Shown here piece by piece: positions 1,177 to 37,252 of a DNA stretch of 64,000 bases (within the stretch, counting starts at the first letter, position 1; each line of letters starts with the position of its first letter). The stretch lies in the IMG/VR virus record IMGVR_UViG_2706796244_000001, positions 1-64,000 of that record. One strand, given 5' to 3'. The translations under genes and the position numbers were made by a program. The stretch comes from a virus. Lineage: Duplodnaviria; Caudoviricetes. Below the pieces are notes generated by a model, which was given only the letters and a program-made list of their open reading frames with translations, ran no database searches and was not told the DNA's origin.

Positions 1177-1542
1177 ATGTCTTTCGTTTCCCCTGAAAGG
1201 GCTGCACTCATAGCAGCCAATGCTCTCGATAATGCAAAGGCTGCATTTCAAACCATGCCTGCCGATATGCGCAAGGAATTCATGGCCTGGTGCATCAACA
1301 AGGACAAAGAGATGCAGTCTCGCCTGTTCCCTGGTGTCCAGGCGGGATTCAAACTGGTGGCCATGTCTAACTTCTACCGAGATTATTGGGATGAGGAAGA
1401 ACATGCAGCTCGGTGGAATGACCAGGCAGAAGCACAAATACATGCCGACTACCTCAACAATCAGAAGGGCATACACGCAGAAGAACACTGGGTGGTCAAG
1501 CCTGCCAATTACCAACTGAAGAAAGGCAGTGACCAATTGTGA
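1177..1542 (+). CDS. Hypothetical early protein (121 aa)
   Basis: SD AAGGAG, ATG 1177, GTGA overlap with the next gene. Confidence 0.75.
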   Translation: MSFVSPERAALIAANALDNAKAAFQTMPADMRKEFMAWCINKDKEMQSRLFPGVQAGFKLVAMSNFYRDYWDEEEHAARWNDQAEAQIHADYLNNQKGIHAEEHWVVKPANYQLKKGSDQL

Positions 1543-1907
1543 TCTTCGTATTCGGATCCAATCAAGCAGGCATCCACGGTAAGGGTGCAGCATTGCATGC
1601 CCGTAAATACTACGGCGCACTCCAGGGTGTGGGCGAAGGTCCGACAGGAAAAGCCTATGCCATTCCTACAAAGGACAGGTCGATCAAGACCTTGCCTCTG
1701 CATACCATTCAAGAAGGCGTTGATCGCTTCCTTGAATATGCCAAGCCTTATGTGTTTGCTGAATTCCAGGTGACACGTATTGGCTGTGGCCTGGCAGGCT
1801 ACAAGGATGCGGACATTGCACCCATGTTCCTGCATGCACCCAACAACTGCATCTTCGACCGGGCCTGGAAACCATGGCTGGGTGATGCCCGTCGCTACTT
1901 CAATTAG
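1539..1907 (+). CDS. DarG/TARG1-like macrodomain protein (putative ADP-ribose glycohydrolase)
   Basis: NQAGIHGKGAAL, AIPTK and RIGCGLAG correspond to DarG NTVGVMGKGIAL, NFPTK and PLGAGNGG motifs. Confidence 0.7.
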   Translation: MIFVFGSNQAGIHGKGAALHARKYYGALQGVGEGPTGKAYAIPTKDRSIKTLPLHTIQEGVDRFLEYAKPYVFAEFQVTRIGCGLAGYKDADIAPMFLHAPNNCIFDRAWKPWLGDARRYFN

Positions 1908-1915
1908 AACCAAGG

Positions 1916-1942
1916 GGAAAGGGCAGTTGTCCTTTCCTGTTT
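1916..1942 (+). terminator. Probable intrinsic terminator
   Basis: GGAAAGGGC-AGTT-GTCCTTTCC then TGTTT. Confidence 0.5.
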
Positions 1943-1975
1943 GCTCTATCCACATCCAACTCAAAGGAGTTTCCC

Positions 1976-2344
1976 GTGAACGCATCCCAATTCATTCAAG
2001 CCGTGACTCAACCCATGGCCCAGTTCTATGTCCAGCCTCTGCACAATCCCAATAGCGGTGAGTTCTGCACTGTGCTGCGCCAAATGAGACACCTCTCCAT
2101 GCTGGGCATAACCGTACCCAAGACATTGAAGGTGCTGGCCACTGGCCGAGTGGAAGGCTATCAATACACCTGTCCCTCTTCTCGTAGGCAGGCACAGATC
2201 AATGAGACTCCCGTGCACATGGGCCGTTTCTCAATAGAAAGAGTCCAGACCCGCAAGGGTACGTGGCTCAGGTACGTCAACATCGCATGGGGAGGAGAGA
2301 TCCACCGCGTGCAGATCCAACCTACCACCTTGTTCATCGATTAA
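1976..2344 (+). CDS. Hypothetical early protein (122 aa)
   Basis: SD AAGGAG, GTG start. Confidence 0.7.
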   Translation: MNASQFIQAVTQPMAQFYVQPLHNPNSGEFCTVLRQMRHLSMLGITVPKTLKVLATGRVEGYQYTCPSSRRQAQINETPVHMGRFSIERVQTRKGTWLRYVNIAWGGEIHRVQIQPTTLFID

Positions 2345-2354
2345 GGAGATTCAA

Positions 2355-2702
2355 ATGACAAACCCAAACCTTATCCATGCTCTCGATGCAGCCGTAATCA
2401 ATAAAGCAGTGGATCATCTGAAGAAGGTGGCCTTCGAGAATGCACTCACTGCCATAGCTGTGCTGGACATTGCACAAATGGAACTGCTGCAAGCCCACAT
2501 CAGCCACGAGCTAATGCACCTCAAATTCGTGGGCCAAGCCACTACTGTGGCTGACCTTCCTACAGAAGCCATTCCATTCCCTGATCTGTATGAAATGCCT
2601 GAGCTGGTCAGCGATGACGCTCAACGCATTCATCAAGGCCAGCTGTATGCCGAAGGCATTGACCAGCTGAAGGCTGAACGCAACAAAGCACTGGGCCTGT
2701 AA
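2355..2702 (+). CDS. Hypothetical early protein (115 aa)
   Basis: SD TAAGGAG, ATG 2355. Confidence 0.75.
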   Translation: MTNPNLIHALDAAVINKAVDHLKKVAFENALTAIAVLDIAQMELLQAHISHELMHLKFVGQATTVADLPTEAIPFPDLYEMPELVSDDAQRIHQGQLYAEGIDQLKAERNKALGL

Positions 2703-2836
2703 TGTTCACGTTCATTGAACGGCATCACGACATGATGCTGCGTTATTGCACAGGCTTGCCAGTCTTCTGGACCATGCCTGAACCCAACCTCAATCTCACA
2801 GCACTCAGTGCTGCAATCAAGGAAGCATTCAAATGA
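2702..2836 (+). CDS. 44-aa hypothetical protein
   Basis: TAATG overlap upstream and ATGA overlap downstream; exactly fills the gap. Confidence 0.6.
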   Translation: MFTFIERHHDMMLRYCTGLPVFWTMPEPNLNLTALSAAIKEAFK

Positions 2837-3084
2837 CCCGAGCATTCCCTATAGCGTTGCGTCTTAATGCGGAAGGCTATCCATACTTGGCCTACGACGC
2901 CGGCTCCATGTCTGAAGAGCGTGCCCGTGAACTGATTGGCTATCGCCATCTGATGAATGGCAAACACAACATCCGCATCGCCAAGTGCGGTGGTCGCTGG
3001 TTGACATTCATTCGCCGTGGCACTCCACAGTTTGAACGTCAGCTGGCCCGTCAACATGTCGCTCGACTGAATGGAGAAATCTAA
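2833..3084 (+). CDS. Hypothetical protein (83 aa)
   Basis: Translationally coupled at both ends. Confidence 0.7.
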   Translation: MTRAFPIALRLNAEGYPYLAYDAGSMSEERARELIGYRHLMNGKHNIRIAKCGGRWLTFIRRGTPQFERQLARQHVARLNGEI

Positions 3085-3401
3085 TGCACTACGCAATCAC
3101 TGGCCTGTCTCAAGAACAGGTGCTGCACATCCGCAAGACCATACCCATGTTTCCCATTTCCACAGATGGGGCTAACGCCATATTAGATCGTATCGATCTG
3201 GCACTGGTACAGCCACAGGTGGATGACGCAATGGAGATACTGAAGCAGATGGATAACCGTCAGCTTCAAAGCATCCAGCAAGCATATGAATCCCATCCAA
3301 ATGCAGGGCCCTATGAAGTGGCATTGCGAAATGCCATCCTCCAATACCGCATATCTCAGGGCTACACCACCATCGTATTCAAGCAGGAGATCAATACATG
3401 A
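3084..3401 (+). CDS. Hypothetical protein (105 aa)
   Basis: TAATG coupling, SD GGAG. Confidence 0.7.
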   Translation: MHYAITGLSQEQVLHIRKTIPMFPISTDGANAILDRIDLALVQPQVDDAMEILKQMDNRQLQSIQQAYESHPNAGPYEVALRNAILQYRISQGYTTIVFKQEINT

Positions 3402-3550
3402 GTAATACCCTCATCGCATTGCTCGTGGCAGCAGTCCTCATTGGCTGTGCCGTGGCAACTCGCAAGACCAGCCCAACCCTGTCGGGCATCCTGACATTCC
3501 TGGGCCTGGTCGCTATCTTCACTATTGGACAGGGAATGGATAAGCCATGA
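3398..3550 (+). CDS. 50-aa protein with two hydrophobic helices
   Basis: SD CAGGAG, ATGA overlaps at both ends; MSNTLIALLVAAVLIGCAVA...GILTFLGLVAIFTIG. Confidence 0.65.
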   Translation: MSNTLIALLVAAVLIGCAVATRKTSPTLSGILTFLGLVAIFTIGQGMDKP

Positions 3551-3756
3551 GCCAACGCATCGTGATTATGTCCACCACGTTCTTTGAACAGGACACAGTG
3601 GAAATGGCCCTTGAAGAAAACGGAACCTATTCCGTGTATATGGGTGCAGCCGGCATGGAAGAAATGAAGATTGCCGATGCATATGAACTCTACAAGGATT
3701 ACGTGAAGATCCAACTGAGAAAGGTATTTGAATGTCTGCTCCAACTCTCGGCGTGA
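3547..3756 (+). CDS. Hypothetical acidic protein (69 aa)
   Basis: ATGA coupling to the upstream gene. Confidence 0.65.
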   Translation: MSQRIVIMSTTFFEQDTVEMALEENGTYSVYMGAAGMEEMKIADAYELYKDYVKIQLRKVFECLLQLSA

Positions 3757-4313
3757 TCGGCACTGCCGGTCGGGACAAGACCAAGCCCATGACAGCCAGG
3801 CTGTTCAACTCCATGTGCCACTACCTGTGGCAGCTGATCCATGACTATGGTGAGCCGGTCAACCTGGTGAGCGGCGGGGCAGCCTGGGCTGATCACACTG
3901 CTGTGGTGGTGTGGCTCAAGCTCATGGAACAGGAACACCCGAACGTGGGCAAGCTCACGCTCCACATGCCTGCTCCCTGGGACTGGGAGCGCAAGCAGTA
4001 CGCCGACTCCAAGTGTGGGGGCGTGAGCAACCACTACTTCGAGCGCATGAACTGGCGCACCCACGAAGATCACCTCGGTGAGCTGGAGTTGGTGCAACGG
4101 TTGGCGGGGTGCGAATGCACCTATGCACCCGCCTCTGCTGGCATGGGCTCCTTCTTCCAGCGCAACAGCCTGGTGGCTCAACAGTCCGACTTCCTACTCG
4201 CCTTCACCTGGGGTGAGTCGGAAGACAAGCCGGCCGACGGCGGCACCATGGACACCTGGAACAAGTGCCGAGGCATCAAGAGCCACGTCCCACTCCACAC
4301 GCTTCAGGCGTAA
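3732..4313 (+). CDS. SLOG superfamily (YspA/DprA-like Rossmannoid) protein (193 aa)
   Basis: LGVIGTAGR, LVSGGAAWAD, RNSLVAQQSDFLLAF and DGGTMDT are typical SLOG motifs. Confidence 0.65.
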   Translation: MSAPTLGVIGTAGRDKTKPMTARLFNSMCHYLWQLIHDYGEPVNLVSGGAAWADHTAVVVWLKLMEQEHPNVGKLTLHMPAPWDWERKQYADSKCGGVSNHYFERMNWRTHEDHLGELELVQRLAGCECTYAPASAGMGSFFQRNSLVAQQSDFLLAFTWGESEDKPADGGTMDTWNKCRGIKSHVPLHTLQA

Positions 4314-4406
4314 GACTTTAGCCCAACATACTTCTACTCATGGGGTTGAGGGCTATACCCTATTTCCTACTTTTTCACCCACTTTGCCCTATGGGCACCT
4401 AAGACC

Positions 4407-5264
4407 ATGAAACTCATCAAGAAACTGATCCATCGTGCCCTCGGTATCGAGGTTGTGAGTGCCCTGCGCCAGCCGCAGGCTGACCGGGAGCACGCAGTGC
4501 GGACGGTCAAGCCGAAGGATGGCAGCACCTTCCTGGCCCAGCATCCCAGCCTCTGGGATGACGTGTTGGCCATGGCAGATAGATGCATCAAGGCTGTGCG
4601 TAAGCTGTGGACAATTCCCACACCCAAGCAGCCGAGCCAAGAGGAAATGGCTGCTGTCTTCGCACGCCATACGCAGACTGCTGCCCAGGTCGGCTATGAC
4701 CTGATGAAGCAGGGTATCCGTGAGCGCCTGCGCAAGGATCAAGACGCATGGGTGCGGCAGACACTGCTCGGGTCCGACAATCCTGAAGTGGCAGCTCTTG
4801 GTGTGCGCTCCGATGTGCAAGAGCACCTGGATCTCTCCCGGCGACGGGAGGAATTGCTGGGCGAGATGAGCATGGATGCCGACAAGCTCCGTGAGTCCCT
4901 TACCCAGGCCGAGGTCTATCGCATGATTCATGGCACTTACCAGCTGACCAGCGACCAGATGGAGCGGCTGCTGATAGGCATCAAGGAGTGCAAGTCCAGG
5001 GCCAGAGCCAACCAGCTCTGGGACCGTGCACTGGCCACCTACGTGCCTGAACATACTGACCCCAAGCTCAAGGAAATCATGCAGGAAGTGGCAGACGTAA
5101 GGCTTAGACAATTCGCTGCTGAAGATGCTGCCGCTGCTCAGGCCAAGAAGCCTGTGATTCGGTGGTGTCCCGTGTTGCAGCAATGGCGTGCCGCAGGCCT
5201 ACCGTATGTAGCAGCATGCTGCGCGATCAAACTTAATCTGCTGAACCAGAAAGGAAAGAGATGA
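4407..5264 (+). CDS. Hypothetical helical protein (285 aa)
   Basis: Long ORF with coding-like codon usage, ATGA overlap downstream. Confidence 0.8.
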   Translation: MKLIKKLIHRALGIEVVSALRQPQADREHAVRTVKPKDGSTFLAQHPSLWDDVLAMADRCIKAVRKLWTIPTPKQPSQEEMAAVFARHTQTAAQVGYDLMKQGIRERLRKDQDAWVRQTLLGSDNPEVAALGVRSDVQEHLDLSRRREELLGEMSMDADKLRESLTQAEVYRMIHGTYQLTSDQMERLLIGIKECKSRARANQLWDRALATYVPEHTDPKLKEIMQEVADVRLRQFAAEDAAAAQAKKPVIRWCPVLQQWRAAGLPYVAACCAIKLNLLNQKGKR

Positions 5265-5587
5265 GCATCACCGCCGAGGCAGTCGTCCGTGACTTCTGCC
5301 TTGAGTACCACACCTGGGCTACTGATGGTGCACCTGATGGCAAGCCCTTCTACCGCTCGTTCTCCCTCTGCGAGAACCTGCGCCACCTGCTGACGCTCCA
5401 CCAGTTCCCCAAGGATCTGGCTGCATCTGCGGATGCTTGGTTGTTGCAGGCTTTGCCTGCTTCGCCCTGGCGAGACAGCTTCCCCTTCAACAACGGGATC
5501 CACGACTGGTTGGCCGAGGGCTACCAGGAAGCACACCACCTCAATGAAAAACGCATCGCATGGTGCAAGGAGTACGGAAATGTCTGA
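5261..5587 (+). CDS. Hypothetical protein (108 aa)
   Basis: SD AAAGGA, coupled to the upstream gene. Confidence 0.75.
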   Translation: MSITAEAVVRDFCLEYHTWATDGAPDGKPFYRSFSLCENLRHLLTLHQFPKDLAASADAWLLQALPASPWRDSFPFNNGIHDWLAEGYQEAHHLNEKRIAWCKEYGNV

Positions 5588-5993
5588 CAAGGATTTGTGC
5601 CTGCCGAGTGAGCAGGCCCAGAAGCTGCTGATCAATGCCAACGTGGCCCGGCGTGAATACCTCCAGGCCCGGTTCGAGGGGCCAGAGGAAATGCAGGTGC
5701 TTCACGACAAGATGCAGGCTGCGGATATCGCGGTCAACCGCTACATCCGTGACGCAGAGCAGCGTGCAGCCAAGCTGCTGCCTGGCCTGAACCTGCGCTG
5801 GGAGTTCCGATGGCTCAACCCCGGCAACCAGACCGTTCTCTGGGATGGTGCACTGGACTGGGTGCCTGTCAAACCTGACGTTCGTGGTCAGACCATCGAG
5901 CAGAAGGTCAAGGAGATCCAGGGCTACACATGGCAGGGCAAGCGCTGCTACGCAGTGCGCCCGGTGTACGAGTCCTACGGCGAGGAATGCTGA
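5580..5993 (+). CDS. Hypothetical protein (137 aa)
   Basis: SD AAGGAG before ATG 5580 within the longer track ORF. Confidence 0.7.
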   Translation: MSDKDLCLPSEQAQKLLINANVARREYLQARFEGPEEMQVLHDKMQAADIAVNRYIRDAEQRAAKLLPGLNLRWEFRWLNPGNQTVLWDGALDWVPVKPDVRGQTIEQKVKEIQGYTWQGKRCYAVRPVYESYGEEC

Positions 5994-6256
5994 TGGCCGA
6001 GCTCAACGTCTCCCAATTCGCGGTGCAGCTGGCCAAGATCTTCGGCGAGAAATCCATCGCCTATGGCAGTGGTGCCGCCACGCTGGAGCAATGCTCTGCT
6101 GCAGCCCGTGACCTGATCACCTACATCGCCAACCTGGAGCGCCGGGCCGCCATTGGTGCTGAACTGGTGGAGGCCATCCGCTTCGCACCCAACGGCATCC
6201 GTGCGATCCAGACCATCGCCAATTGGGACCAACACCAGAAGGAGCACCCGCTGTGA
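5993..6256 (+). CDS. Hypothetical protein (87 aa)
   Basis: TGATG coupling, SD GAGGA. Confidence 0.7.
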   Translation: MAELNVSQFAVQLAKIFGEKSIAYGSGAATLEQCSAAARDLITYIANLERRAAIGAELVEAIRFAPNGIRAIQTIANWDQHQKEHPL

Positions 6257-6390
6257 TGGATCACTTCATGGTCAAGCAGTTCGGCGGCATACGCATGCTC
6301 GTCATCTACGACCGCGACCTCAACCCATGGGACTTCTATTGGTCCCACTACCGCCTGATGAAGGAGCTGCCTCGTGCTGCAACTGTCTGA
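6256..6390 (+). CDS. 44-aa hypothetical protein
   Basis: SD AAGGAG, TGATG coupling. Confidence 0.55.
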   Translation: MDHFMVKQFGGIRMLVIYDRDLNPWDFYWSHYRLMKELPRAATV

Positions 6391-6607
6391 TCCCTGGCAC
6401 GTCCGTGCCGACAATGCCTACGGTCGATCCATCCTGACGCGCAACAACCACTACCAGGTGGAGCAGAAGGATGTAGGCCGTCATCTCAACAATTTCGGCG
6501 GCTATGGCCGCCCAGGCATCACGCTGCGCCAGCAACATGTGGGCCTGAAGCTGATCCATGCCGAGTACGAAGGGTGGAACAGCTGGTACTGGGACACCCG
6601 ACCATGA
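6374..6607 (+). CDS. Hypothetical protein (77 aa)
   Basis: SD AAGGAG at 6361, GTG start, ATGA overlap downstream. Confidence 0.6.
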   Translation: MLQLSDPWHVRADNAYGRSILTRNNHYQVEQKDVGRHLNNFGGYGRPGITLRQQHVGLKLIHAEYEGWNSWYWDTRP

Positions 6608-7032
6608 GCCAACACCCCATCTCGTTCACCTGGGCCCGCAAGGATCCCAATGGCTACGAATGCAGCAGCAAGGGCGACAAGCGCTTCTCTGCCTTCGGTG
6701 CCTACATGCCTGATGGCCGCACCATCGAAGCCTGGTATCAGTGCGACGTGAAAGGCTACAAGCCTGGCGGCACCGAATGGCAACTGGGCAAGGGTCAGCC
6801 TCCGGCTGTGCCCTACCTGCCTGGCCAGCTGTATCAGGCCTATCTGGGGCTGTGGCGCCTTTGGGCTGTCCGCAACCCACTGCTGATGGTCGAGCTCTAT
6901 GAGCGGGCCAAGAAGCATCGTGTGCTGACCGACATGTTTGCCGCGGCAAACGAGGACAGCATCAACCAAGCACGGGCCCTGGCCCAGATCCTCAACGAAT
7001 GGATCGTCCCTGAAATGAAAGACGGAGTTTGA
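6604..7032 (+). CDS. Divergent NADAR-like protein (142 aa)
   Basis: FSAF..DGRTIEAWYQCDVK..GKG..RNPLL..LTD..NQARALAQILNE follows the order of YbiA/NADAR motifs FSNF..EHYFQAQK..GR..QHAEL..LVE..NRLGYLLMELRE. Confidence 0.5.
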   Translation: MSQHPISFTWARKDPNGYECSSKGDKRFSAFGAYMPDGRTIEAWYQCDVKGYKPGGTEWQLGKGQPPAVPYLPGQLYQAYLGLWRLWAVRNPLLMVELYERAKKHRVLTDMFAAANEDSINQARALAQILNEWIVPEMKDGV

Positions 7033-7033
7033 A

Positions 7034-7615
7034 ATGAACACGATACGTACAGCAATGGCAGCGCAGATCAACGCATCGCGCAACTACAGCATCGAACCAG
7101 AGGAAGAAGGGCTGGTCATGTTTGGCGGGCCCATCGCCCAGGTCAAGGAATGCAAGCTGGACAGCAATGGCATGGTGGCCGGGCTGGAGCTCACTCTGGG
7201 CTCCATCTGCCCCGAGCAGACGAAGCGGCCCTACTGCCCCGAGTGTGGCCACCACGATGTGTCCATCGACGCCGTGGGCGAATGGTGCACCGTAGCCAAC
7301 GACTGGGTGCTCAAGGACACCTACAACAGCGGCGGTTGCTGCGAATGCGGAGCCTCCGAGCTCAAGCGCTTCGACGTGATGACCGATGCCGAGCACACCG
7401 CCCACTGGCAAGCCAAGCTGGATGAGAAGGGCAAGGAACTGGCCCTGTCCGTGGACAAGGATCAGGGCGTGCTCTACCGCACCGAGCAGCTGCCCAACGG
7501 CGGCGTGAAGCTGTTCCTCAAGCTGACCGAGAAGGGCAAGCTCTCCTTCGCCAAGGAGATGGGCCTGCCCTCGGCCAACATGGGTAGCTTCGCCGCTATC
7601 TCGATTGGCGACTGA
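7034..7615 (+). CDS. Hypothetical protein with a putative Zn finger (193 aa)
   Basis: CPEC...CCEC cysteine pairs; SD GGAG. Confidence 0.7.
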   Translation: MNTIRTAMAAQINASRNYSIEPEEEGLVMFGGPIAQVKECKLDSNGMVAGLELTLGSICPEQTKRPYCPECGHHDVSIDAVGEWCTVANDWVLKDTYNSGGCCECGASELKRFDVMTDAEHTAHWQAKLDEKGKELALSVDKDQGVLYRTEQLPNGGVKLFLKLTEKGKLSFAKEMGLPSANMGSFAAISIGD

Positions 7616-7845
7616 TGATCAAGTACGTGCTCCGCCCGGGGCATGTGCGGAGCAAGTCCGATGGCGAGGTGCACTTCATAAATGCACAGCGCCTGGCCGA
7701 ACTCTACCGTGTCCCCCTCAACGAATGTGCAGTCTGGGACAACCGGCTGCCACTTACCACCAACCTGAAGATGCATGCCGGCCGCCTGGCCCTGCATCCC
7801 CGTAACAACGGAAACTACGATGACCTACCTGCGATTCCGCTCTGA
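7615..7845 (+). CDS. Hypothetical protein (76 aa)
   Basis: TGATG coupling. Confidence 0.6.
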   Translation: MIKYVLRPGHVRSKSDGEVHFINAQRLAELYRVPLNECAVWDNRLPLTTNLKMHAGRLALHPRNNGNYDDLPAIPL

Positions 7846-8473
7846 CATTCTGGGCAGCTCCGATGGAGCGCCGGCCCGTGCAGTCCTCTGCATCATGGCC
7901 TTCCTGCTGTGCTGGCAAGTGCCCGGCTCTCTCCCCTGGTTCATCGGGGGAATGGTCGGTGTCATCTTGCTCGACATGGCCATGTCCTGGCTGGACGACC
8001 GCATGCGTGACCGTGAATGGGTCCGCGTGACCAACGTGTGGATGCAACTGCGGCCCCAAGAGATCATGGAGTCCTTCCTGGATGACTGGTACATCTGGGC
8101 CCAGCACAAGCTCCTGCCAGGCAAGTACGGCGAGGGTGAAGTGAGCTTCCGCGACGAGGACACCCTGTGCACTGCCTTTTGGCATTGGCAGGGTTACATC
8201 GCTGAGCGTTACGGCATCACCCAGAACTCAGTGACCTGGGCCACCTGGCGTGCTCGCTGCAACGAGGCCGGCATCATCATGCGCAAGCAGTTGATGGAGT
8301 TTGCCCACGGCACGCTCAAGGAGCGGGTCTCATCCAAGGATCCGTTCTGCGACGTGTTCTGGCTGGAAGACGAGTACGAGCCTGGCCGCTTGCCTCGCTA
8401 CCACAATCCGATCCGCGTCCAGTTTGCCTATCAGACTCGACGCTTCCACTTCTGCCACTTGCTGGCTGATTAA
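7820..8473 (+). CDS. Membrane protein with two N-terminal TM segments (217 aa)
   Basis: Hydrophobic VLCIMAFLLCWQV and WFIGGMVGVILLDMAM. Confidence 0.7.
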   Translation: MTYLRFRSDILGSSDGAPARAVLCIMAFLLCWQVPGSLPWFIGGMVGVILLDMAMSWLDDRMRDREWVRVTNVWMQLRPQEIMESFLDDWYIWAQHKLLPGKYGEGEVSFRDEDTLCTAFWHWQGYIAERYGITQNSVTWATWRARCNEAGIIMRKQLMEFAHGTLKERVSSKDPFCDVFWLEDEYEPGRLPRYHNPIRVQFAYQTRRFHFCHLLAD

Positions 8474-8478
8474 CCCAG

Positions 8479-8501
8479 GGGCTCCGAAAGGAGCCCTTTC
8501 T
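8479..8501 (+). terminator. Intrinsic terminator (GAAA loop)
   Basis: GGGCTCC-GAAA-GGAGCCC-TTTCT. Confidence 0.75.
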
Positions 8502-8517
8502 ATATCTGGAGAGAGAT

Positions 8518-9336
8518 ATGACTATTCAACAAGCCGTAGAGCAACAAATCGAATTGGAAAAGCAATTCAGCAAGAATCAATTGCTGCCACGTATGCGTCA
8601 CTACTTCCTCGTGGAAGCTGAGACGGATTACCCCACCTATATCAAGGAGCACATGGACCTGGACTTCGGTATCGACTTCCTGGTGCAAATGGCTCTGCAT
8701 AAGCGGTGCGATCTTCAGACCATGTATGGCCTGATGCGCCACCACTTCAAGGATGATCCTCAAGCCTGCGTCAATGGCCTGCTGCTTGCAGTGGAAAAGG
8801 ATCTGGCCGACTATGACCTGGATATCAACACGTTCATCGTCAAGTTTGAACTGCCACCTGAATTGCAGGCTGAGCTGGACCTGTTCCAGTATCCGCTGCC
8901 CATGGTGGTCAAGCCAGCCGAAGTGGTCACTAACCGGGACACCGGCTACCTGACTAACAAGGGCTCCATCATCCTGAAGAAGAACCACCACGACAACGAT
9001 GTGTGCCTCGACCATATCAACAGGATGAACAGCATCAAGCTGGCCCTGAATATGGACGTGGTGAAGTTCGTCAGCAACAGCTGGAAGAACCTGGATCGTC
9101 CCAAGCCAGGCGAGCTTGGGGAGGACTTCCAGAAACGCCGCAAGGCATTCGCCAAATACGACAAAACGGCGAAACAGGTGGCTGACATTCTCAATGAGAA
9201 TTCGGACCACTTCTACCTCACCCACAAGTACGACAAGCGGGGTCGAACCTACTGCCAGGGCTACCACATCACCTATCAAGGTAATGACTGGAATAAAGCA
9301 GCAGTGGAGTTCTACGACCGCGAGTACGTCATTTAA
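8518..9336 (+). CDS. Phage RNA polymerase II small subunit (N4 gp15-like, RNAP1)
   Basis: FYLTHKYDKRGRTYCQGYHITYQG matches the T7-like RNAP DxRGRxY motif; adjacent to the second subunit. Confidence 0.92.
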   Translation: MTIQQAVEQQIELEKQFSKNQLLPRMRHYFLVEAETDYPTYIKEHMDLDFGIDFLVQMALHKRCDLQTMYGLMRHHFKDDPQACVNGLLLAVEKDLADYDLDINTFIVKFELPPELQAELDLFQYPLPMVVKPAEVVTNRDTGYLTNKGSIILKKNHHDNDVCLDHINRMNSIKLALNMDVVKFVSNSWKNLDRPKPGELGEDFQKRRKAFAKYDKTAKQVADILNENSDHFYLTHKYDKRGRTYCQGYHITYQGNDWNKAAVEFYDREYVI

Positions 9337-9360
9337 TAACTGAACCAAGAGAGAAGAGAT

Positions 9361-10659
9361 ATGTTCCTGCAACCCACAATTACTGAATTCACCGGCGCTC
9401 AATACCTGGCCATTGATATTGCCAACCATTTCGGTCGGGACAGCAAGGGCAATGAACTGGACAAGACCACCTGGGCATACCGCCTGGATTGGTTCGAGTC
9501 CAACAAGCACCAGCTGGAGGCCATCGCCAACAAGTCGGAGAACGTGGCCTCGTACAGCGCCAGCGTCATGGCCTACCGCGCCATGGAGCGGGGCGAGCCG
9601 ATTGGCCGACCCATCAGCCTGGATGCCACGGCATCGGGCCTGCAGCTGCTGAGCGTGCTGACCGGCGACCGCAAGGGCGCCACCATCTGCAACGTGCTCA
9701 ACGCCTACATCGACAAGCAGGTCGGCGATATCAAGGCCATGGCCGACGATGTGGTCAGCCGCATGGACTCGTACACGGCAGTGCACGAAGAGATGGTTGA
9801 CCAGCTGGCTGCTGCCCTGGCAGACGTGACTCGCGTTACGCGCAAGGATGCCAAGCGTGCGGTGATGACTTCCTTGTACGGCTCCGAGGCCGTGCCCAAG
9901 GAAGTCTTCGGCGAAGGCCTAGCACTCCAGGTCTTCTACCGGGTCATGCAGACCGTGGCGCCGGCAGCATGGGAGCTGAACGAGTCGTTTCTGTCCATGT
10001 GGGATACCGAAGCCACCGAGTACGAATGGATCCTGCCCGACAACTTCCATGTACGCACGAAGGTCATGACCACCGTGACGAACGTGGTCCAGTGGTTCGG
10101 TGCTCCTGTGGAAGTGACACACCAGATCAACGCTCCCAAGGAGAAGGGCCGTTCGCTCGGCGCCAACTGCATCCACTCCGTGGATGGTTTTGTGGTGCGT
10201 GAAATGGTGCGTCGTTGCAGCTACAGCAAGAAGCGTGTCAACGAGGTGCTGCTGGCCCTGGATCGTGCCCGGGAGGAATGGGAAGTAGACGATGAGGATG
10301 CCCGCATGGTGCAGATCCTCATGCAGCGCTACCGCGAGAGCGGCTTCTTGTCGGCTCGAATCCTGGACCACATCACCGTGGACAACGCCATGCTGGTGGA
10401 CAAGCAGGCAGTGCGCGATCTGATCGATGAACTGCCGAGCAAGCCCTTCAAGGTGCTGACGATCCACGACTGCTTCCAGTGCCTGCCCCACTACGGGAAT
10501 GACCTGCGCAAGCAGTACAACCTGATCCTGGCCCACATTGGCGCCAGCGATACGCTGAGCTTCCTGCTCAGCCAGATTCTGAAGACAGAGTTCAAGGTGC
10601 CCCAGCTGGATCCCCAGATGTGGTATGAGATCCTGGAGTCGGAGTACGCACTTAGCTAA
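9361..10659 (+). CDS. Phage RNA polymerase II large subunit (N4 gp16-like, RNAP2)
   Basis: Motif A LDATASGLQ, motif B RKDAKRAVMTSLYGS, motif C TIHDCF. Confidence 0.95.
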   Translation: MFLQPTITEFTGAQYLAIDIANHFGRDSKGNELDKTTWAYRLDWFESNKHQLEAIANKSENVASYSASVMAYRAMERGEPIGRPISLDATASGLQLLSVLTGDRKGATICNVLNAYIDKQVGDIKAMADDVVSRMDSYTAVHEEMVDQLAAALADVTRVTRKDAKRAVMTSLYGSEAVPKEVFGEGLALQVFYRVMQTVAPAAWELNESFLSMWDTEATEYEWILPDNFHVRTKVMTTVTNVVQWFGAPVEVTHQINAPKEKGRSLGANCIHSVDGFVVREMVRRCSYSKKRVNEVLLALDRAREEWEVDDEDARMVQILMQRYRESGFLSARILDHITVDNAMLVDKQAVRDLIDELPSKPFKVLTIHDCFQCLPHYGNDLRKQYNLILAHIGASDTLSFLLSQILKTEFKVPQLDPQMWYEILESEYALS

Positions 10660-29467: not shown

Positions 29468-29483
29468 ACTTGGAGGCCTCACG

Positions 29484-30431
29484 ATGGCACGACTGACAAA
29501 CTCCCACGGTATTCCTCTGGCTCTGGCCCTGTGGGCCGTGGATGATGACTACGACTACAACGACGACCCCAGCTACATCAGCGCCACCTCGCTGCTGAAG
29601 CCGCTGCGCGAGATCACGCTGCGCCCCCGGGTTCCGTTCGAGCTCAAGAAGGTGGAGGACGTGGCCGACTACCTGGCCCGAGCCATGGGCAACTCCATCC
29701 ACGCCGGTGTGGAGATGGCCTGGACTCACCGCTACGTCAGGAACCTGCGCAAGCTAGGCTACGACGAAGACACCATCGCCATGGTGCAAATCAATCCGCC
29801 GAAGCCTATCCCCGGCACCATCCCGGTCTACATCGAGCAGCGCAATGTGCGCGAACTGGGCAAGTGGAAGATCGGTGGCAAGTTCGACCTCTGCATTGAA
29901 GGCGTGCTGCACGACACCAAGACCGCCAGCACCTTCAAGTACCGCAAGGGCGACACGAAGGACTACATGCTCCAGGGCTCCATCTACCGATGGCTGCACC
30001 GCGACAAGATCACCTCCGATGTGATCCGCATCTGCTTCGTATTCACGGACTGGCAGGCCTTCCGCGCCAAGCAGGATCCCGACTACCCGCAGACCAAGGT
30101 GCTCAGCATCGACGTGCCGCTCATGAGCATCGAAGAAACCGAGACCTGGATTCTCCAGCGGCTCAGCCTCATTGAGCAATTTTCTGGGGTGCCTGAACGG
30201 CAGCTGCCGGCCTGCACACCCGAAGAGCTCTGGGTGGAGCCCACCCAGTACAAGTATTATTCCGACCCCATGAAAACGGAACGAGCGACCAAGGACTTCA
30301 AGACCGACAAGGCAGGCGCCTACGCCTACCTGGCCTCGAAGGGCAAGGGAATCGTGAAGGAAATCGTGGGAACCCCGAAGCGCTGCGGCTATTGCAGTGC
30401 CTTCCCAATCTGCACCCAAAGGACCACATAA
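29484..30431 (+). CDS. PD-(D/E)XK (Cas4/AddB-like) exonuclease (N4 gp42-like)
   Basis: ISATSL, GNSIH, IEQR, GKFDL, HDTK, C-terminal RCGYC..C. Confidence 0.8.
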   Translation: MARLTNSHGIPLALALWAVDDDYDYNDDPSYISATSLLKPLREITLRPRVPFELKKVEDVADYLARAMGNSIHAGVEMAWTHRYVRNLRKLGYDEDTIAMVQINPPKPIPGTIPVYIEQRNVRELGKWKIGGKFDLCIEGVLHDTKTASTFKYRKGDTKDYMLQGSIYRWLHRDKITSDVIRICFVFTDWQAFRAKQDPDYPQTKVLSIDVPLMSIEETETWILQRLSLIEQFSGVPERQLPACTPEELWVEPTQYKYYSDPMKTERATKDFKTDKAGAYAYLASKGKGIVKEIVGTPKRCGYCSAFPICTQRTT

Positions 30432-32606: not shown

Positions 32607-32615
32607 CCCCGGCCT

Positions 32616-32649
32616 GGGCCTGGAGCCTTTGTTTGGTTTCAGGCCCTTT
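32616..32649 (+). other. Hairpin (12-bp stem) between primase and ATPase genes
   Basis: GGGCCTGGAGCC-TTTGTTT-GGTTTCAGGCCC-TTT. Confidence 0.5.
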
Positions 32650-32672
32650 GGCCTGCTTTGAGGAAGGAAAAA

Positions 32673-33422
32673 ATGGAAGCTGACCAATTCGATCCCGATG
32701 AGCTCAACCAGCTGGTGCTCATCTCGGGCAAATCTACAGCTGGCAAGTCGATGAGCTTGCGCAACCTGCGCGATCAAGAGCGCTGGTACAACTTCATCAC
32801 CGAGGCCGGCAAGCGTCCGCCGTTCCGCAACAAGTTCAACAACGTCCGTGTGAAGGATCCCTATGAGGTGATCGATTACATGGACGAGCTGATTGCGAAC
32901 CAGGCGGATGTGTCCGGGGCCATCCTGGACACGATGACCTTCTGGATGGACATGATGGAAATCATGTACGTCATGGGATCGACCAACACGCAGCAGGCGT
33001 GGGGCGAGTACGCGATGCTGCCCAAGACGCTGCTGCAAACGAAGGTGGCCGCATTCGGCAAGCCTTTCCTCTGCCTGGCTCACGTCAAGGACACCATCGA
33101 CAAGGACATGAACCGTGTCACCGCCGTGCCCATCAAGGGTTCCATGGCGAACAACGGTGTGGAGGCCTACTTCTCCACCGTGGTGATGGCCAAGCTCATG
33201 ACCATCAAGGATCTGGAAAAGTACAAGGACAACGGCCTGCTCACCTTCAGCGAAGATGAGCTGGAGCTGGGTGTCAAGCACGTCTTCCAGACCCGGCAGA
33301 CGCCGGAAACCCTGGGCGAGCGCATCCGCTCTCCCTACCAGATGTTCAGCCGCGATCAGACCTACATGGACAACGATGCGCAGCTGCTGCTGGACCACAT
33401 GCACGAGTTCTACAACGGCTGA
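32673..33422 (+). CDS. Sak4-like/AAA_24 P-loop ATPase (N4 gp44-like)
   Basis: LISGKSTAGKS, ILDTMT, LAH, RIRSP. Confidence 0.8.
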   Translation: MEADQFDPDELNQLVLISGKSTAGKSMSLRNLRDQERWYNFITEAGKRPPFRNKFNNVRVKDPYEVIDYMDELIANQADVSGAILDTMTFWMDMMEIMYVMGSTNTQQAWGEYAMLPKTLLQTKVAAFGKPFLCLAHVKDTIDKDMNRVTAVPIKGSMANNGVEAYFSTVVMAKLMTIKDLEKYKDNGLLTFSEDELELGVKHVFQTRQTPETLGERIRSPYQMFSRDQTYMDNDAQLLLDHMHEFYNG

Positions 33423-33475
33423 CCGTTGTGACCCCGTGAGATCTTTTTCCCCTTTCACCTTTTAAGGAACATGCC

Positions 33476-34237
33476 ATGAGCAACAATCCCTTCGCAAAAT
33501 TCTCGAACGACGGCCTGGAAAAGGCCAAGGACACCCTGGGCGGTGGCGGCTTCATCAAGGACAGCGACCTGTACAAGGGCGCCATCCGTGAGTTCTACGC
33601 CACCCAGTCCGAGTCGGGCTCGATGTTCGCCCACTTCACCATCGAAATGGCCGATGGCAGCAAGTACAGCGACCGCGTGTGTGTGGCCGGCAAGAGCGGT
33701 GACAACTTCTACCTGAACAAGCAGGACAACACCAAGAAGGTGCCGCTGCCCGGCTACCTGATCGCCGAGCACATGGCGCAGATCGCCGTGGGCAAGTCGC
33801 TGAACGAGCTGGACTTCCAGACCAAGACCATCACGCAGCGCAACTTCGACACCAAGAAGGACGAGCACGTCGATGTGCAGATGGCCGTCGAAATGCTGGG
33901 CAAGGTCGTGGAACTGGGCGTGCTGAAGGTCCGCACCAACAAGAAGGGCCCGGCGCCGGACTACGCCCTGACGAACGAAGAAAAGTTCGAGAACGAAACC
34001 GACAAGGTGTTCCACCCCGAATACGGCATCACCGTGGTCGAGGCCGAGAACGAGATCTCCGAACCGCTGTTCCGCAAGGGCTGGCTGGAACGCAACAAGG
34101 GCCAGATCCGCGACAAGTTCAAGGAAGTCAAGGGTGCCGGCGCAGCAGGCGCTCCGCAGCGTCCCACTCCCTCGGGCGGCGCAGCTGCCGGTGGTGCCCC
34201 GGCCCGCAAGTCGCTGTTCCCCAGCAAGTCGGCTTGA
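33476..34237 (+). CDS. ssb: Single-stranded DNA-binding protein (N4 gp45-like, late transcription activator)
   Basis: Synteny; acidic OB-like body, G/A/P-rich linker, C-terminal RKSLFPSKSA. Confidence 0.85.
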   Translation: MSNNPFAKFSNDGLEKAKDTLGGGGFIKDSDLYKGAIREFYATQSESGSMFAHFTIEMADGSKYSDRVCVAGKSGDNFYLNKQDNTKKVPLPGYLIAEHMAQIAVGKSLNELDFQTKTITQRNFDTKKDEHVDVQMAVEMLGKVVELGVLKVRTNKKGPAPDYALTNEEKFENETDKVFHPEYGITVVEAENEISEPLFRKGWLERNKGQIRDKFKEVKGAGAAGAPQRPTPSGGAAAGGAPARKSLFPSKSA

Positions 34238-34240
34238 TAG

Positions 34241-35359
34241 GTGGACGAGCGCTACGACATAGCGCTCCCCCTGCGCATCGACTACGGGAAGAAGAAGGTC
34301 AGTGAATTCATCCTGAACCTGAACCACTACAGGAACGCTCACCAGCGAGTCCTGGCTGCGGCGAAGGTGGCCTACACAGAGGCCATCCTTCCCCTGGTTC
34401 AGCATCTTCCCGTGTTCAGCACTGTCCGCCTGGTCTACACGCTGTACGTCAAAAACGCGCAGCTGTGTGACACGAGCAACCCATGCTCGATCATCGACAA
34501 GTTCTTCAGCGATGCGCTGGTGGACGCCAAGAAAATCGAGGACGACAACTACACCATCGTTGAAGGTGTTGATTACCGCTTCGGCGGCATTGACCGCGAG
34601 AACCCTCGCTGCGTTGTCTCCATCATCCCAACCGGACCCCTGAAAGAAGATCCCATGAAGATCGTGACCATTTTTGACGCGGACGACGTTCGCGCCGCAC
34701 TGCTGGCCTACGCAGGTAATGCCCTGCCGGAAGGCCACACCGCCCACCTGGATCTGCCCGACGACTTCGAGCTCCAGATGGAAATCCTGCCTGACGGCGT
34801 GGCGCCCACTGCCGGCCCCAACAAGGCGAACCCCCTGGGCCTGGCCGACAAGATCAAGACGGCTCGCAAGCCTCGTGGCCCCAACAAGGCCAAGGAAACG
34901 GCCCAGGACGCTCCGAAGCCCGATGCCGCTACCCAGACCTCGACTGGTCCTGGCGACGGAACCAGCACCCCGCTGAGCCCTTCCACGGGCCCGCAAGAAG
35001 GTGCCAAGGCCAACGAAGGTGGCAGCGAGTCCCAGGCTGACGGCCAGACCGGCGAACAGACCCCGCCGTGGGAAGGCGAAAAGCAGGAAGCTGCTGCTCC
35101 CGCTGCTCAGCCCCCGGCACCTGCACCCGAGCCGGAACCTGAGAAGGAAACCCCTGCTCAGGAACAGGCCCAGGCTGCTGCCGGCCAACGCAAGTCGCTG
35201 TTCGCCCCCAAGCCCCAGACGGCTGCTGATCCGGCTGACGACGTGCGTGACCCTCCTGGTGCAGCTGCGGCGACTGGCACTGCCCCAGCTGCGGCCAATG
35301 GTGAGGGCGCTCCCCGCAAGTCGCTGTTCTCCGGCCTCGGCAAAGTGAAGAACGACTGA
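34241..35359 (+). CDS. rusA: RusA-like Holliday junction resolvase domain fused to a long low-complexity tail (372 aa)
   Basis: DTSN..SIIDKFFSDALV..IEDDN in residues 1-130; in-frame internal ATG at 34655; A/P/E/Q-rich tail. Confidence 0.7.
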   Translation: MDERYDIALPLRIDYGKKKVSEFILNLNHYRNAHQRVLAAAKVAYTEAILPLVQHLPVFSTVRLVYTLYVKNAQLCDTSNPCSIIDKFFSDALVDAKKIEDDNYTIVEGVDYRFGGIDRENPRCVVSIIPTGPLKEDPMKIVTIFDADDVRAALLAYAGNALPEGHTAHLDLPDDFELQMEILPDGVAPTAGPNKANPLGLADKIKTARKPRGPNKAKETAQDAPKPDAATQTSTGPGDGTSTPLSPSTGPQEGAKANEGGSESQADGQTGEQTPPWEGEKQEAAAPAAQPPAPAPEPEPEKETPAQEQAQAAAGQRKSLFAPKPQTAADPADDVRDPPGAAAATGTAPAAANGEGAPRKSLFSGLGKVKND

Positions 35360-35544
35360 TGGATGGCGGGACGATCCTGATACTGATCGTCCTGGGCATT
35401 GCCGCGTGGATGCTCATCACGCAGGCCATCGTCGTGATCGCCCCCTACATTGCAGGGGGCGTCATCATCCTGGCGGTCGGGGGGTTCGTGTGGTTTGCCA
35501 GCCGAACCCAGCGCAATGAGCAAAACGAAGAAGGCCCCGAATAG
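35359..35544 (+). CDS. Small two-TM membrane protein (61 aa)
   Basis: Two hydrophobic stretches; TGATG coupling. Confidence 0.7.
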   Translation: MDGGTILILIVLGIAAWMLITQAIVVIAPYIAGGVIILAVGGFVWFASRTQRNEQNEEGPE

Positions 35545-35555
35545 GGGCCTTTTTT
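35532..35555 (+). terminator. Intrinsic terminator
   Basis: AGGCCCC-GAATA-GGGGCCT-TTTTT. Confidence 0.8.
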
Positions 35556-35574
35556 ATGAACCAAGGAGAAAACT

Positions 35575-35772
35575 GTGAAGCACTTCGAGATCCCTCTGCG
35601 GGTCAACATAACGGTGCTGGCCGAGTCCCGCGAAGAGGCGATCTCGCTTGCCCAGCACGTCATCTCTGCCGGTGTCGAAACTGTGGGTGAGGCAGCGGGT
35701 AGCCAGCTGCTGTCCACCTCCACCGTGATCGACCACCCCAACATCAAGGAAAAGGAGAATCCCTATGTCTGA
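35575..35772 (+). CDS. Hypothetical protein (65 aa)
   Basis: SD AAGGAG, GTG start. Confidence 0.65.
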   Translation: MKHFEIPLRVNITVLAESREEAISLAQHVISAGVETVGEAAGSQLLSTSTVIDHPNIKEKENPYV

Positions 35773-36472
35773 GCAACGGATGCCCAAACCCCTGTCTGTT
35801 CCCGCTTCCGCCATCGACTCCAGTATCTCGGTCTTGGACTCGCTGGCCAAGGTCGATGGCCAATCTCGCCACGTCATGCCCAACGTTGCTGTGTCCATCC
35901 GCGACACCATGGAGGCCATGCAGCGAGAGCTAATCTACCTGCGTGCCCTGGCGGCAACACGCACCGAGACCACTCCCGGCGTGGAAGCCATCCAGCTCAT
36001 TCGCAGCAAGCAAATCAGCAAGGGCTACACGGCTGCGTCCGATTTCGGTGAGCGCTCCCGCCGTGGCGATGTGCTGATCCAAGCGGCCATTGCACTGCTG
36101 TGCAACCCGTCCTCTGTGCGCCCTTCCCGTGGTTCGGGCTGGCCCTGGGACGACATGTTCTGGCCTCAGCAGGGCGGCAAGCGTGGACGCATCAGCCATG
36201 CCGGTGCATTGATCGCTGCCCACCTGGAGATGGAATTCGAGCACGACAAGACCCGCACCTACGTGCTGCGCGATACCACCATCACCGGCGACAAGATGGC
36301 CTTCGTGGACATGGACGCCGGCCGCACAACGCTGCTGGACAGGGCCAACATGTACGGCCTGAAGGATGCCCAGGAACAGTGCCGTGGCAACCCGGACCTG
36401 GAAATGTGGCCGGTGGATCAGCTGGAGAAGATCGTTGTCCGCACGATCCCCTCCACCACGCAGCCGGAGTAA
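35765..36472 (+). CDS. Hypothetical protein (235 aa)
   Basis: SD AAGGAG; WPWDDMFWP and LIQAAIALL motifs. Confidence 0.75.
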   Translation: MSEQRMPKPLSVPASAIDSSISVLDSLAKVDGQSRHVMPNVAVSIRDTMEAMQRELIYLRALAATRTETTPGVEAIQLIRSKQISKGYTAASDFGERSRRGDVLIQAAIALLCNPSSVRPSRGSGWPWDDMFWPQQGGKRGRISHAGALIAAHLEMEFEHDKTRTYVLRDTTITGDKMAFVDMDAGRTTLLDRANMYGLKDAQEQCRGNPDLEMWPVDQLEKIVVRTIPSTTQPE

Positions 36473-36475
36473 GCC

Positions 36476-36784
36476 ATGGCCCACCCTGCTGACAAAGAGT
36501 GGGTCGAACAGGTAAAGGCGGAGTACCGTGAGAACGGCTTTCTGCACGATGGCAAACCACCCATTCAGGGATCGATTGCCCGTCGCATTCGTGGCCGTGC
36601 CTACCTGCTCGCCTATGCCCTGTCCCGCAACAGCCTGTGCTGGGGCCGCCTGACCGCAGAAGGCTCCTTCCACAGTGTCTGGTTCGGCCTGGCCCACAAC
36701 GTGTTCATGTGCGACCTCACAGGTGCCATGCACATGTATACGCTGCATCTGGGCCCGCTGACCATCACCTTCGGGAAAGACTGA
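36476..36784 (+). CDS. Hypothetical protein (102 aa)
   Basis: SD GGAG. Confidence 0.65.
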   Translation: MAHPADKEWVEQVKAEYRENGFLHDGKPPIQGSIARRIRGRAYLLAYALSRNSLCWGRLTAEGSFHSVWFGLAHNVFMCDLTGAMHMYTLHLGPLTITFGKD

Positions 36785-36963
36785 TGGACGGCCTACTCAA
36801 GCTCATTGGCATCGTGTGCATAGTTATGTGGATCGCCGGTGAGGTGATCCCAGGCTGGCACTGCCACATCATCTTCGGCGGCGATGAGTTCGCTGCTGAA
36901 GCCCATGAAACCATGGCTCGGGAGATCCGGGCCAAACTGAACCAAGGAGAAAGCAATGAATGA
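36784..36963 (+). CDS. Small membrane-anchored protein (59 aa)
   Basis: TGATG coupling; hydrophobic LLKLIGIVCIVMWIAG. Confidence 0.6.
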   Translation: MDGLLKLIGIVCIVMWIAGEVIPGWHCHIIFGGDEFAAEAHETMAREIRAKLNQGESNE

Positions 36964-37252
36964 GCGTCCGAACTGCTTCAGCGAAGCATTGCAGCTGCTG
37001 AAGGACGGCTACTACATGCGCCGCTCGGGCTGGAATGGCTCGGGCATGTGCGTGCAGCTGGTCCGTCCTGGCCAGACGTCTCGCGGCGTGGCCAGTGTGC
37101 GCCACGGCCACGATACCAACCACACCGTGCTGGAGCCCTTCTTCGTGATCGTCAAGTCCCAGGGCAGCGGCGACAACGTGAAGCGCACGGCCAACACCTG
37201 GGTGCCCAGCGTGTCGGATCTGCTCGCCGAGGACTGGGAGGAAGCTCCATGA
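36956..37252 (+). CDS. tad2: DUF2829 / Tad2-like cyclic-nucleotide sponge (anti-Thoeris)
   Basis: FSEALQLLKDG..RRSGWNG.GM...WVPSVSDLLAEDW matches the DUF2829 signature. Confidence 0.8.
   Translation: MNERPNCFSEALQLLKDGYYMRRSGWNGSGMCVQLVRPGQTSRGVASVRHGHDTNHTVLEPFFVIVKSQGSGDNVKRTANTWVPSVSDLLAEDWEEAP

Follow-up and report, generated by a model that had tools for sequence, protein, structure and literature searches.

The 64,000-base window analysed here (bases 1-64000 of a 73,882-bp virus record whose direct terminal repeats are 450 bp long) contains, all on the plus strand, four genes whose products resemble proteins that handle ADP-ribose: a 122-amino-acid (aa) minimal macrodomain protein at 1539..1907, a 193-aa stand-alone protein of the SLOG superfamily (YpsA/YAcAr/DprA-like) at 3732..4313, a 142-aa divergent NADAR-fold protein at 6604..7032, and a 98-aa Tad2/DUF2829 protein at 36956..37252. 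The source is Delftia phage RG-2014; BFVD contains an RG-2014 protein of 100% identity to that encoded at 6604-7032. It is an N4-like phage, since it encodes a 3413-aa virion RNA polymerase (vRNAP) at 39107..49348 on the minus strand, which we identified from the list of open reading frames (ORFs) and by blastp to other vRNAP homologues. The paper that described the RG-2014 genome mentions neither ADP-ribose nor macrodomains (PMC5735904). Our results suggest that the four proteins, whose genes are inherited independently, bind or cleave ADP-ribose derivatives and together probably weaken host defences that depend on NAD+ or ADP-ribose.

The four ORFs are real: they lie on the plus strand at the positions originally predicted, have plausible starts and occur once each in the genome of 73,882 bp. 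The macro gene starts with a GTG at 1539 that overlaps the upstream stop codon, and the NADAR-like gene with an ATG at 6604 in an ATGA overlap with the preceding stop. The ATG codons of the SLOG (3732) and Tad2 (36956) genes follow a GAAAGG Shine-Dalgarno site and AAGGAG, respectively. Each protein has hundreds of homologues; those listed have E values between about 1e-28 and 1e-126. The macro, SLOG and NADAR-like genes lie downstream of a homologue of N4 gp2 and upstream of the genes of RNA polymerase II (RNAPII), in a region syntenic with the early region of N4. The early position originally proposed for these three genes thus stands, and their early expression is a plausible extension of that synteny. 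A box of sequence CCAACTGA(A)GAAAGG precedes the macro and SLOG starts (window positions 1513-1526 and 3711-3723) and TGAACCAAGGAG precedes that of Tad2 (36938-36949); these boxes represent a recurring motif fused to the Shine-Dalgarno site. An imperfect hairpin with 21-nt arms, 76% complementary, and a 2-nt loop begins at the macro stop codon (1905-1948) and might serve as the terminator of an early transcription unit.

The macro protein is a homologue of N4 gp14 (52% identity) and matches the NCBIfam family A1S_2505_Nterm (NF049995) with an E value of 8.7e-43. Pfam Macro (PF01661) matched neither the protein (E up to 1) nor the genome (E up to 10), and the single sequence had no match in the PDB. 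Its AlphaFold2 (AF2) model, with a mean predicted local distance difference test (pLDDT) score of 96.6, has the three-layer alpha/beta/alpha macro fold, as seen by both Foldseek and VIA. The top Foldseek matches (E 1.4e-4 to 1.6e-3) are TARG1, Thermosipho DarTG and the DarG proteins of Mtb and Taq; TARG1 comes first at 1.4e-4, and DarTG and DarG, at 3e-4 to 7.5e-4, are within the top six. In VIA the model scored Z 11.0 with TARG1 (root-mean-square deviation, rmsd, 2.3 over 108 aa) and Z 10.2 with DarG. As VIA Z scores fail to separate TARG1 and DarG from alphavirus macrodomains, the subgroup was drawn from sequence. With the family profile, TARG1 was the sole PDB match at E <0.1 (E 0.06), and the alignment places K45 on the catalytic K84 of TARG1, the Lys found 41 residues before the Asp of GCGLD and itself equivalent to DarG K80 (PMC5179494). 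The hhalign comparison with AdfM, the phiKZ gp104 protein validated as an anti-DarT2 factor and mutated at N23 in that study (PMC13309987), gave an E value of 0.0076, with N8 on N23, a common PTKD motif and GCGLAG on GCANGG. Residues N8, K45 and G82-G87 are invariant in 120/120 homologues. Membership of the Lys-dependent TARG1/DarG/AdfM group is therefore what the conserved residues suggest, which makes the protein a candidate Lys-dependent ADP-ribosyl glycohydrolase of the DarG/TARG1/AdfM type.

The macro protein consists of the macrodomain alone, without a C-terminal DarT-binding domain, and its gene is surrounded by small phage ORFs with no DarT-like match in Pfam or PHROG. It thus appears to be an orphan eraser rather than a DarG. 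It shares with AdfM, DarG and TARG1 the macro fold, the conserved Asn (N8, corresponding to N23 of AdfM and N22 of DarG), the PTKD motif with the catalytic Lys, and a Gly-rich GC-GG loop, and like AdfM it stands alone. In contrast, it is trimmed (122 aa, when AdfM has 162 and the other two have about 150), is only about 15-21% identical to these proteins, is missed by Pfam Macro and has an Ala where TARG1 has D125. The contexts differ as well: AdfM is validated and belongs to a nucleus-forming jumbo phage, whereas the RG-2014 protein, whose activity is predicted only, is encoded in the early region of an N4-like podovirus. In Rhodobacter phage RcRios, the product of gene 55 (L217:2492-2860) is a gp14-type macrodomain annotated as 'ADP-ribosyltransferase', which is probably a mislabel, and a DprA-like (SLOG) gene is found about 2.4 kb upstream in the same cluster. 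One viral contig (L149:4659-13339) harbours a NADAR-like gene flanked by three paralogous gp14-type macro genes within 9 kb.

The NADAR-like protein belongs to PHROG 9995 and to no Pfam family. Pfam NADAR (PF08719) matched neither the protein, nor the genome (E up to 10), nor any of 36 family members; there was no NCBIfam match, the single sequence had none in the PDB, and the family profile retrieved only a chance match there. Transposase rows in the Atlas were also discarded as chance level (score 0.87, few shared features, no structure). The evidence for the fold comes from the AF2 model (pLDDT 93.8). Its top Foldseek match is the Geobacter NADAR 8bat, with E 0.57 and a query-normalised template modelling (TM) score of 0.46, compared with about 0.2 for the rest. 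In a wide VIA search of 48,161 chains, the three NADAR structures searched took ranks 1-3, namely 8bat (Z 9.0, rmsd 3.5 over 128 aa), YbiA 2b3w (Z 7.7) and 8bau (Z 7.6), with rank 4 at Z 4.6. We also aligned the family by hhalign with 38 YbiA-like NADARs taken from loci in genome contigs. The match, weak (E 0.16, 21 columns), is confined to the NADAR signature: RFSAF...DGR-TIEAWYQC faces DFSNF...DGKTWPTSEHYFQA of YbiA, TIEAWYQC lies on TSEHYFQA, and E42 is placed on YbiA E48. The catalytic residues of NADARs are a Glu and a Lys (PMC11543638, PMC11825919), the Glu being E36 in T4 AdfN (PMC11825919) and E88 in the EcC7 NADAR (PMC11543638); judging from the common motif, E42 and YbiA E48 would be equivalent to both. 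Among 144 domains from clusters at 50% identity, E42 and K50 are found in 143, K63, D110 and Q122 in all, and Q46 in 141. The invariant D110 is near the C-terminal helices; its EcC7 counterpart may be the C-terminal acidic residue D171, a pairing that none of the alignments showed.

We therefore accept this protein as a divergent enzyme of the NADAR superfamily, a candidate N-glycosidase or ADP-ribosyl glycohydrolase. It has in common with AdfN (T4 gp30.3, Bas32, Bas60), the DarG1 NADARs and YbiA the alpha+beta fold and the FS-F...DG...E--[YF]Q motif with the invariant Glu, and may also share with them a conserved Lys on the same helix and an invariant Asp near the C-terminal helices; like AdfN it stands alone in a phage. 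It differs from them in being shorter (142 aa) and invisible to Pfam, in having the Lys one residue further from the Glu and an atypical N-terminal ECSSKGDKR segment, and in belonging to a family with members built into giant virion proteins, vRNAPs among them. In phiKZ, which carries AdfM (gp104), a NADAR-like homologue with 51% identity is present directly after gp82 (L216:1874-2236; NC_004629.1 79873-80235). Only the 38-aa PHIKZ082.1 is annotated there, and none of the ORFs listed at that place reaches 60 aa from a canonical start codon, so that the gene might be broken or its annotation faulty.

For the SLOG protein, the Atlas gave a feature score of 0.93 to YpsA, DprA and YAcAr clusters, every named match being one of these three, and structure comparison gave TM scores of 0.63-0.68 to YpsA clusters. 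With phmmer, the YpsA structure 2nx2 was a weak match (E 0.18). The comparison of the domain alone with the Pfam-validated YAcAr domain of protein P0368 by hhalign yielded an E value of 1.2e-3 over the GxGR...SGxAxGAD motifs; we used it instead of an alignment with P0368 at E 3e-30, which was inflated by a fused member, P0345. GRD13-15, SGGAxWxDH47-55, RN144-145 and GGT170-172 are kept in 118-120 of 120 homologues, mostly in all 120. Atlas, hhalign and conservation thus agree on a Rossmann-like SLOG fold with a Gly-rich N-terminal loop and the SGxAxGxD and GGT motifs. The SLOG-clan models of Pfam matched neither the protein nor any of 36 family members, PF06908 found nothing in the genome, and the family profile found nothing in the PDB.

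The assignment of the fourth protein to Tad2/DUF2829 is unambiguous by sequence comparison. Pfam PF11195 matches residues 8-96 with 70.5 bits (cut-off 25; E 1.8e-19), and the PDB entries of Tad2 (8v3e), ModTad2 (9eib) and SPO1 Gp34.65 (8sme) match residues 8-95 with E values of 1.3-1.6e-9. SPO1 gp34.65 and annotated Tad2 proteins were found by tblastn at 37-39% identity; N4 gp49 was also matched by tblastn. By analogy with the described function of Tad2 (10.1101/2023.05.01.538930), the RG-2014 protein is a candidate sponge for glycocyclic ADP-ribose (gcADPR), directed against Thoeris. Like SPO1 gp34.65, to which it is about 38% identical, it is of similar size, with DUF2829 across the whole protein and conserved R-GWNG-GM and TW-PSVSD-LAEDW blocks; unlike it, it has longer central loops, and its ligand binding is predicted only. 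N4 gp49 (L133:34003-34485) has 160 aa, of which residues 84-157 alone match the Tad2 domain; the free-standing 98-aa protein of RG-2014 equals its C-terminal half. The folds proposed in the original prediction, DarG-like macro, NADAR-like, SLOG and Tad2, are thus those of the four proteins, and for the first three the agreement comes from Foldseek, VIA, the Atlas and hhalign.

Natural fusions point to a common role. When the NADAR-like family profile was run against 1.84 billion representatives, 799 of these cluster representatives matched with E values up to 0.001, and many have several domains. Among the best 150 of the 799, seven proteins fuse the NADAR-like domain with the gp14-type macro family, in both orders. 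Three fusions with the SLOG family of RG-2014 were found, two among the same 150 (P0436 and P0443) and the third being P0345. Pfam analysis of 70 NADAR-like fusion proteins revealed DUF4326 in 16, YAcAr SLOG in four, RNase H and DprA in two each, and an AlkB-like dioxygenase, a guanylate kinase and DUF488-N3a in one each. Adjacency is also observed among IMG/VR viral contigs, where a macro gene, often adjacent, is present within 10 kb at 10 NADAR-like loci (of 80) and at 5 SLOG loci (of 74). The 'same chemistry' originally ascribed to all four genes is therefore credible for the macro, NADAR-like and SLOG proteins because of these fusions; Tad2 is tied to them by annotation only.

Blastp revealed NADAR-like domains inserted in the N-terminal part of two vRNAP homologues, P0455 (3841 aa; insert at residues 952-1073, gene at L134:10001-21526) and P0401 (3506 aa; insert at residues 623-745). 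P0455 is encoded on a 72.4-kb N4-like contig and has the Pfam vRNAP domains. The phages concerned, both N4-like and distinct from RG-2014, would thus deliver the NADAR-like domain into the cell along with their DNA. The profiles of the macro, NADAR-like and SLOG families detect no such insert in the vRNAP of RG-2014. More generally, the NADAR-like domain occurs in proteins of about 2-6 kaa (thousand aa), and some 30 proteins of more than 2 kaa are among the matches listed. The giant carriers P0376 (3911 aa) and P0383 (4009 aa) have no vRNAP homology by blastp, leaving only two demonstrable vRNAP homologues among the giants, and Pfam finds nothing in them or in a 1360-aa fusion protein; P0376 and P0383 may be polyvalent virion proteins. 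A gp14-type macro homologue is also found inside a 'putative RNA polymerase' gene of the crAss-like uncultured phage cr112_1 (MT774388.1 2123-2491), which by homology would be a second case of an ADP-ribose eraser domain in a giant phage polymerase.

The distributions of the four families differ widely. We found the macro gene in 379 phage records, the NADAR-like gene in 80, the SLOG gene in 2 and Tad2 in 105. Some of the 379 are not N4-like; with 471 records for the RNAPII large subunit, the macro gene nevertheless appears to be present in most N4-like records. Organism tallies suggest its presence in nearly all N4-like phages of Pseudomonas, Achromobacter and Pectobacterium, and apparently not in those of Vibrio. 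The 80 NADAR-like records are mostly phiKZ-like jumbo phages, together with 8 Achromobacter N4-like phages, and the 2 SLOG records are Erwinia phages; both genes are thus rare among cultured N4-like phages. In viral contigs, 66 of the 74 SLOG loci have none of the other families within 10 kb, and the same is true of 70 of the 80 NADAR-like loci. Treating the four genes as one system is not tenable, given that most loci carry one family only and that the record counts are so uneven. What the fusions demonstrate is functional linkage without obligate co-inheritance, and the four genes are inherited independently.

We favour a model in which these four separately inherited genes encode proteins that bind or cleave ADP-ribose derivatives and together likely blunt NAD+/ADP-ribose-dependent host defences, and we put its probability at roughly 55%. 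The macro protein would strip the bases of nucleic acids of ADP-ribose by means of Lys45, assisted by Asn8 and the G82-G87 loop, its most probable substrate being the thymidine adduct made by DarT2. The NADAR-like protein would act as an N-glycosidase through Glu42, Lys50 and Asp110, most probably on guanine-linked ADP-ribose made by DarT1-type enzymes, as does AdfN. Because of the fusions, the SLOG protein is placed in the same pathway as the NADAR-like enzyme, where it would probably bind or further process the ADP-ribose or nucleotide moiety, and Tad2 would sequester the Thoeris signal gcADPR. Presumably, defences of these kinds are what the phage counters in Delftia. Orphan erasers have been validated, namely AdfN (PMC11825919) and AdfM (PMC13309987), as has Tad2. 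The macro protein has its nearest validated relative in AdfM, the NADAR-like protein in AdfN or DarG1; these relatives speak for the cleavage of ADP-ribose from bases modified by DarT2 and DarT1, respectively, and the specificities we propose are drawn by analogy with them. The RNase H, AlkB-like and vRNAP contexts would also fit nucleic-acid substrates.

Several points weigh against this model. The Pfam Macro, NADAR and YpsA models fail on the macro, NADAR-like and SLOG proteins (run with DUF4326 and ART-PolyVal against the genome, they matched nothing), so that these three calls rest on structure, motifs and profile comparisons. The sequence link of the NADAR-like protein to NADAR is weak, with hhalign at E 0.16 over 21 columns, and K50 is at position i+8 from the Glu rather than i+7 as in known NADARs (K95 in EcC7). 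Regarding the macro protein, alphavirus macrodomains score like TARG1 and DarG in VIA (Z of 10-11 for all), and Z alone cannot fix the subgroup; the column of TARG1 D125 has the invariant Ala86 and no Asp, as AdfM likewise has no Asp there. With 379 records for 471 of RNAPII, the macro gene is also more widespread than one would expect if it countered a defence that hosts have only sporadically. Finally, the DUF4326, SLOG and guanylate kinase partners would fit soluble nucleotides as well as DNA adducts, and soluble substrates are what Iyer et al. 2022 prefer for the Macro, NADAR and SLOG domains of phages (PMC9503650).

According to the latter proposal, which comes from a contextual analysis of 21,191 viral proteomes that reported SLOG fusions with Macro, NADAR and DUF4326, the three proteins would act not on DNA adducts but on soluble ADP-ribose derivatives such as cyclic ADP-ribose isomers, ADP-ribose-1''-phosphate or other NAD+-derived signals or toxins, dividing the labour by bond beside the Tad2 sponge. 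The fusion partners lend it some weight, in particular DUF4326, a predicted ribose-phosphate phosphatase found in 16 of the 70 proteins, but also SLOG and guanylate kinase, and the presence of Tad2 implies that the phage does meet ADP-ribose-derived signals. Nevertheless, all phage NADARs and DarG-type macrodomains tested so far act on DNA adducts (PMC11825919, PMC13309987), the macrodomain falls in the Lys-dependent TARG1/DarG/AdfM group, and the RNase H and AlkB-like fusions together with the insertion in the DNA-bound vRNAP point to nucleic-acid substrates; we consider this proposal a serious but rather unlikely one. RNA is another conceivable target: the enzymes might undo the ADP-ribosylation of mRNA or other RNA by CmdTAC-type defences, or remove the ADP-ribose left over from RNA repair, thereby shielding the three-polymerase transcription programme. 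One antiviral ADP-ribosyltransferase has mRNA as its target (10.1101/2024.02.24.581662), ADP-ribosylated cytidine is among the products that NADARs can restore (PMC12945103), and the NADAR-like domains of vRNAPs, the macro match in the crAss-like putative RNA polymerase and the RNase H fusions could all be read in this way. Yet PHROG and Pfam scans of the early ORFs showed no RNA ligase or RNA-repair neighbours, and we hold this option to be very improbable.

We attach equally little credence to the idea that the four genes are unrelated passengers, their grouping being an artefact of a joint reading of annotations, with the macro protein performing a housekeeping task in N4-like development such as the reversal of a phage- or host-made protein modification. 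It would account for the dispersal and independent inheritance of the genes, for the wide occurrence of the macro gene among N4-like records, when those with the NADAR-like gene are just 8 of Achromobacter phages, the SLOG gene is confined to 2 Erwinia phage records and Tad2 is a gp49 homologue, and for the single family present at most viral loci. What it hardly explains, if there is no shared function, is the repeated fusion of these exact families in both orders and their frequent adjacency. Moreover, no phage-encoded ADP-ribosyltransferase partner was found in the genome, ART-PolyVal being the sole transferase family searched.

The original prediction invoked a life cycle that exposes single-stranded DNA (ssDNA), which as a driver is speculation. 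The wide occurrence of the macro gene in N4-like phages and the NADAR-like domain inside vRNAPs give the idea some support, but the same families are abundant in phages without ssDNA-templated transcription, and the NADAR-like gene is commonest in phiKZ-like jumbo phages. A bolder version would have N4-like phages depend on the de-ADP-ribosylation of their own DNA, owing to transcription from hairpin or ssDNA templates: the gp14-type macro gene would on that account be widely kept as an early gene, and the NADAR-like module, made early or, in some lineages, borne by the injected vRNAP, would clean adducts from the template at entry, a transcription-coupled erasure. We regard this as quite unlikely.

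The same prediction had held the combination to be undescribed, which is too strong, as the co-occurrence of Macro, NADAR and SLOG proteins, their fusions and their early deployment in DNA viruses were already described by Iyer, Burroughs, Anantharaman and Aravind (PMC9503650). RG-2014 resembles their network in having the three in one DNA-virus genome, and the network likewise includes fusions among them and with DUF4326 and their occurrence as early genes or packaged virion proteins. RG-2014 differs in that its genes are dispersed over 5.5 kb, neither fused nor adjacent. Their study predicts mostly soluble substrates and, in the text consulted, does not single out N4-like phages, gp14 or the Pfam-dark NADAR-like family. 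What appears to be new is the fusion of this Pfam-dark domain with the gp14-type macro and SLOG families, and its insertion in vRNAPs. Our analysis thus proposes testable functions for four 'hypothetical' proteins of a cultured, therapy-oriented phage, groups N4 gp14, whose gene some 380 phage records contain, with erasers of the DarG/AdfM kind, and defines a large NADAR-fold family outside Pfam coverage (the 799 cluster representatives). The fusions and the vRNAP insertions offer handles on the choice between DNA adducts and soluble signals as the substrates of the Macro, NADAR and SLOG proteins of phages. Should the two erasers prove active, N4-like phages might become a compact model for layered counter-defence against DarTG1, DarTG2 and Thoeris.

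As for the genomic surroundings, no additional NAD+- or ADP-ribose-related domain came up when ten more early ORFs were compared with PHROG and Pfam. Scans for direct and inverted repeats in bases 1-9500 found no clear repeated vRNAP promoter hairpin motif, and neither the early region nor the Tad2 region matched anything by megablast in the phage collection, from which the window's own record is probably missing. The early region is marked on its left by the gp2 homologue (605..1099, plus strand; 33% identity to N4 gp2 by tblastn, E 7e-19). The right-hand limit of the synteny is set by homologues of the small and large RNAPII subunits, N4 gp15 and gp16 (8518..10659, plus strand), encoded by ORFs at 8518-9336 and 9361-10659, for which tblastn gave 50% identity to N4 RNAP1 (E 3e-88) and 44% to RNAP2 (E 3e-120). 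The N4 gene order is kept, with homologues of gp2, gp14, the RNAPII subunits, gp24/25, the helicase, the DNA polymerase, gp42-44, the ssDNA-binding protein (SSB) and gp49.

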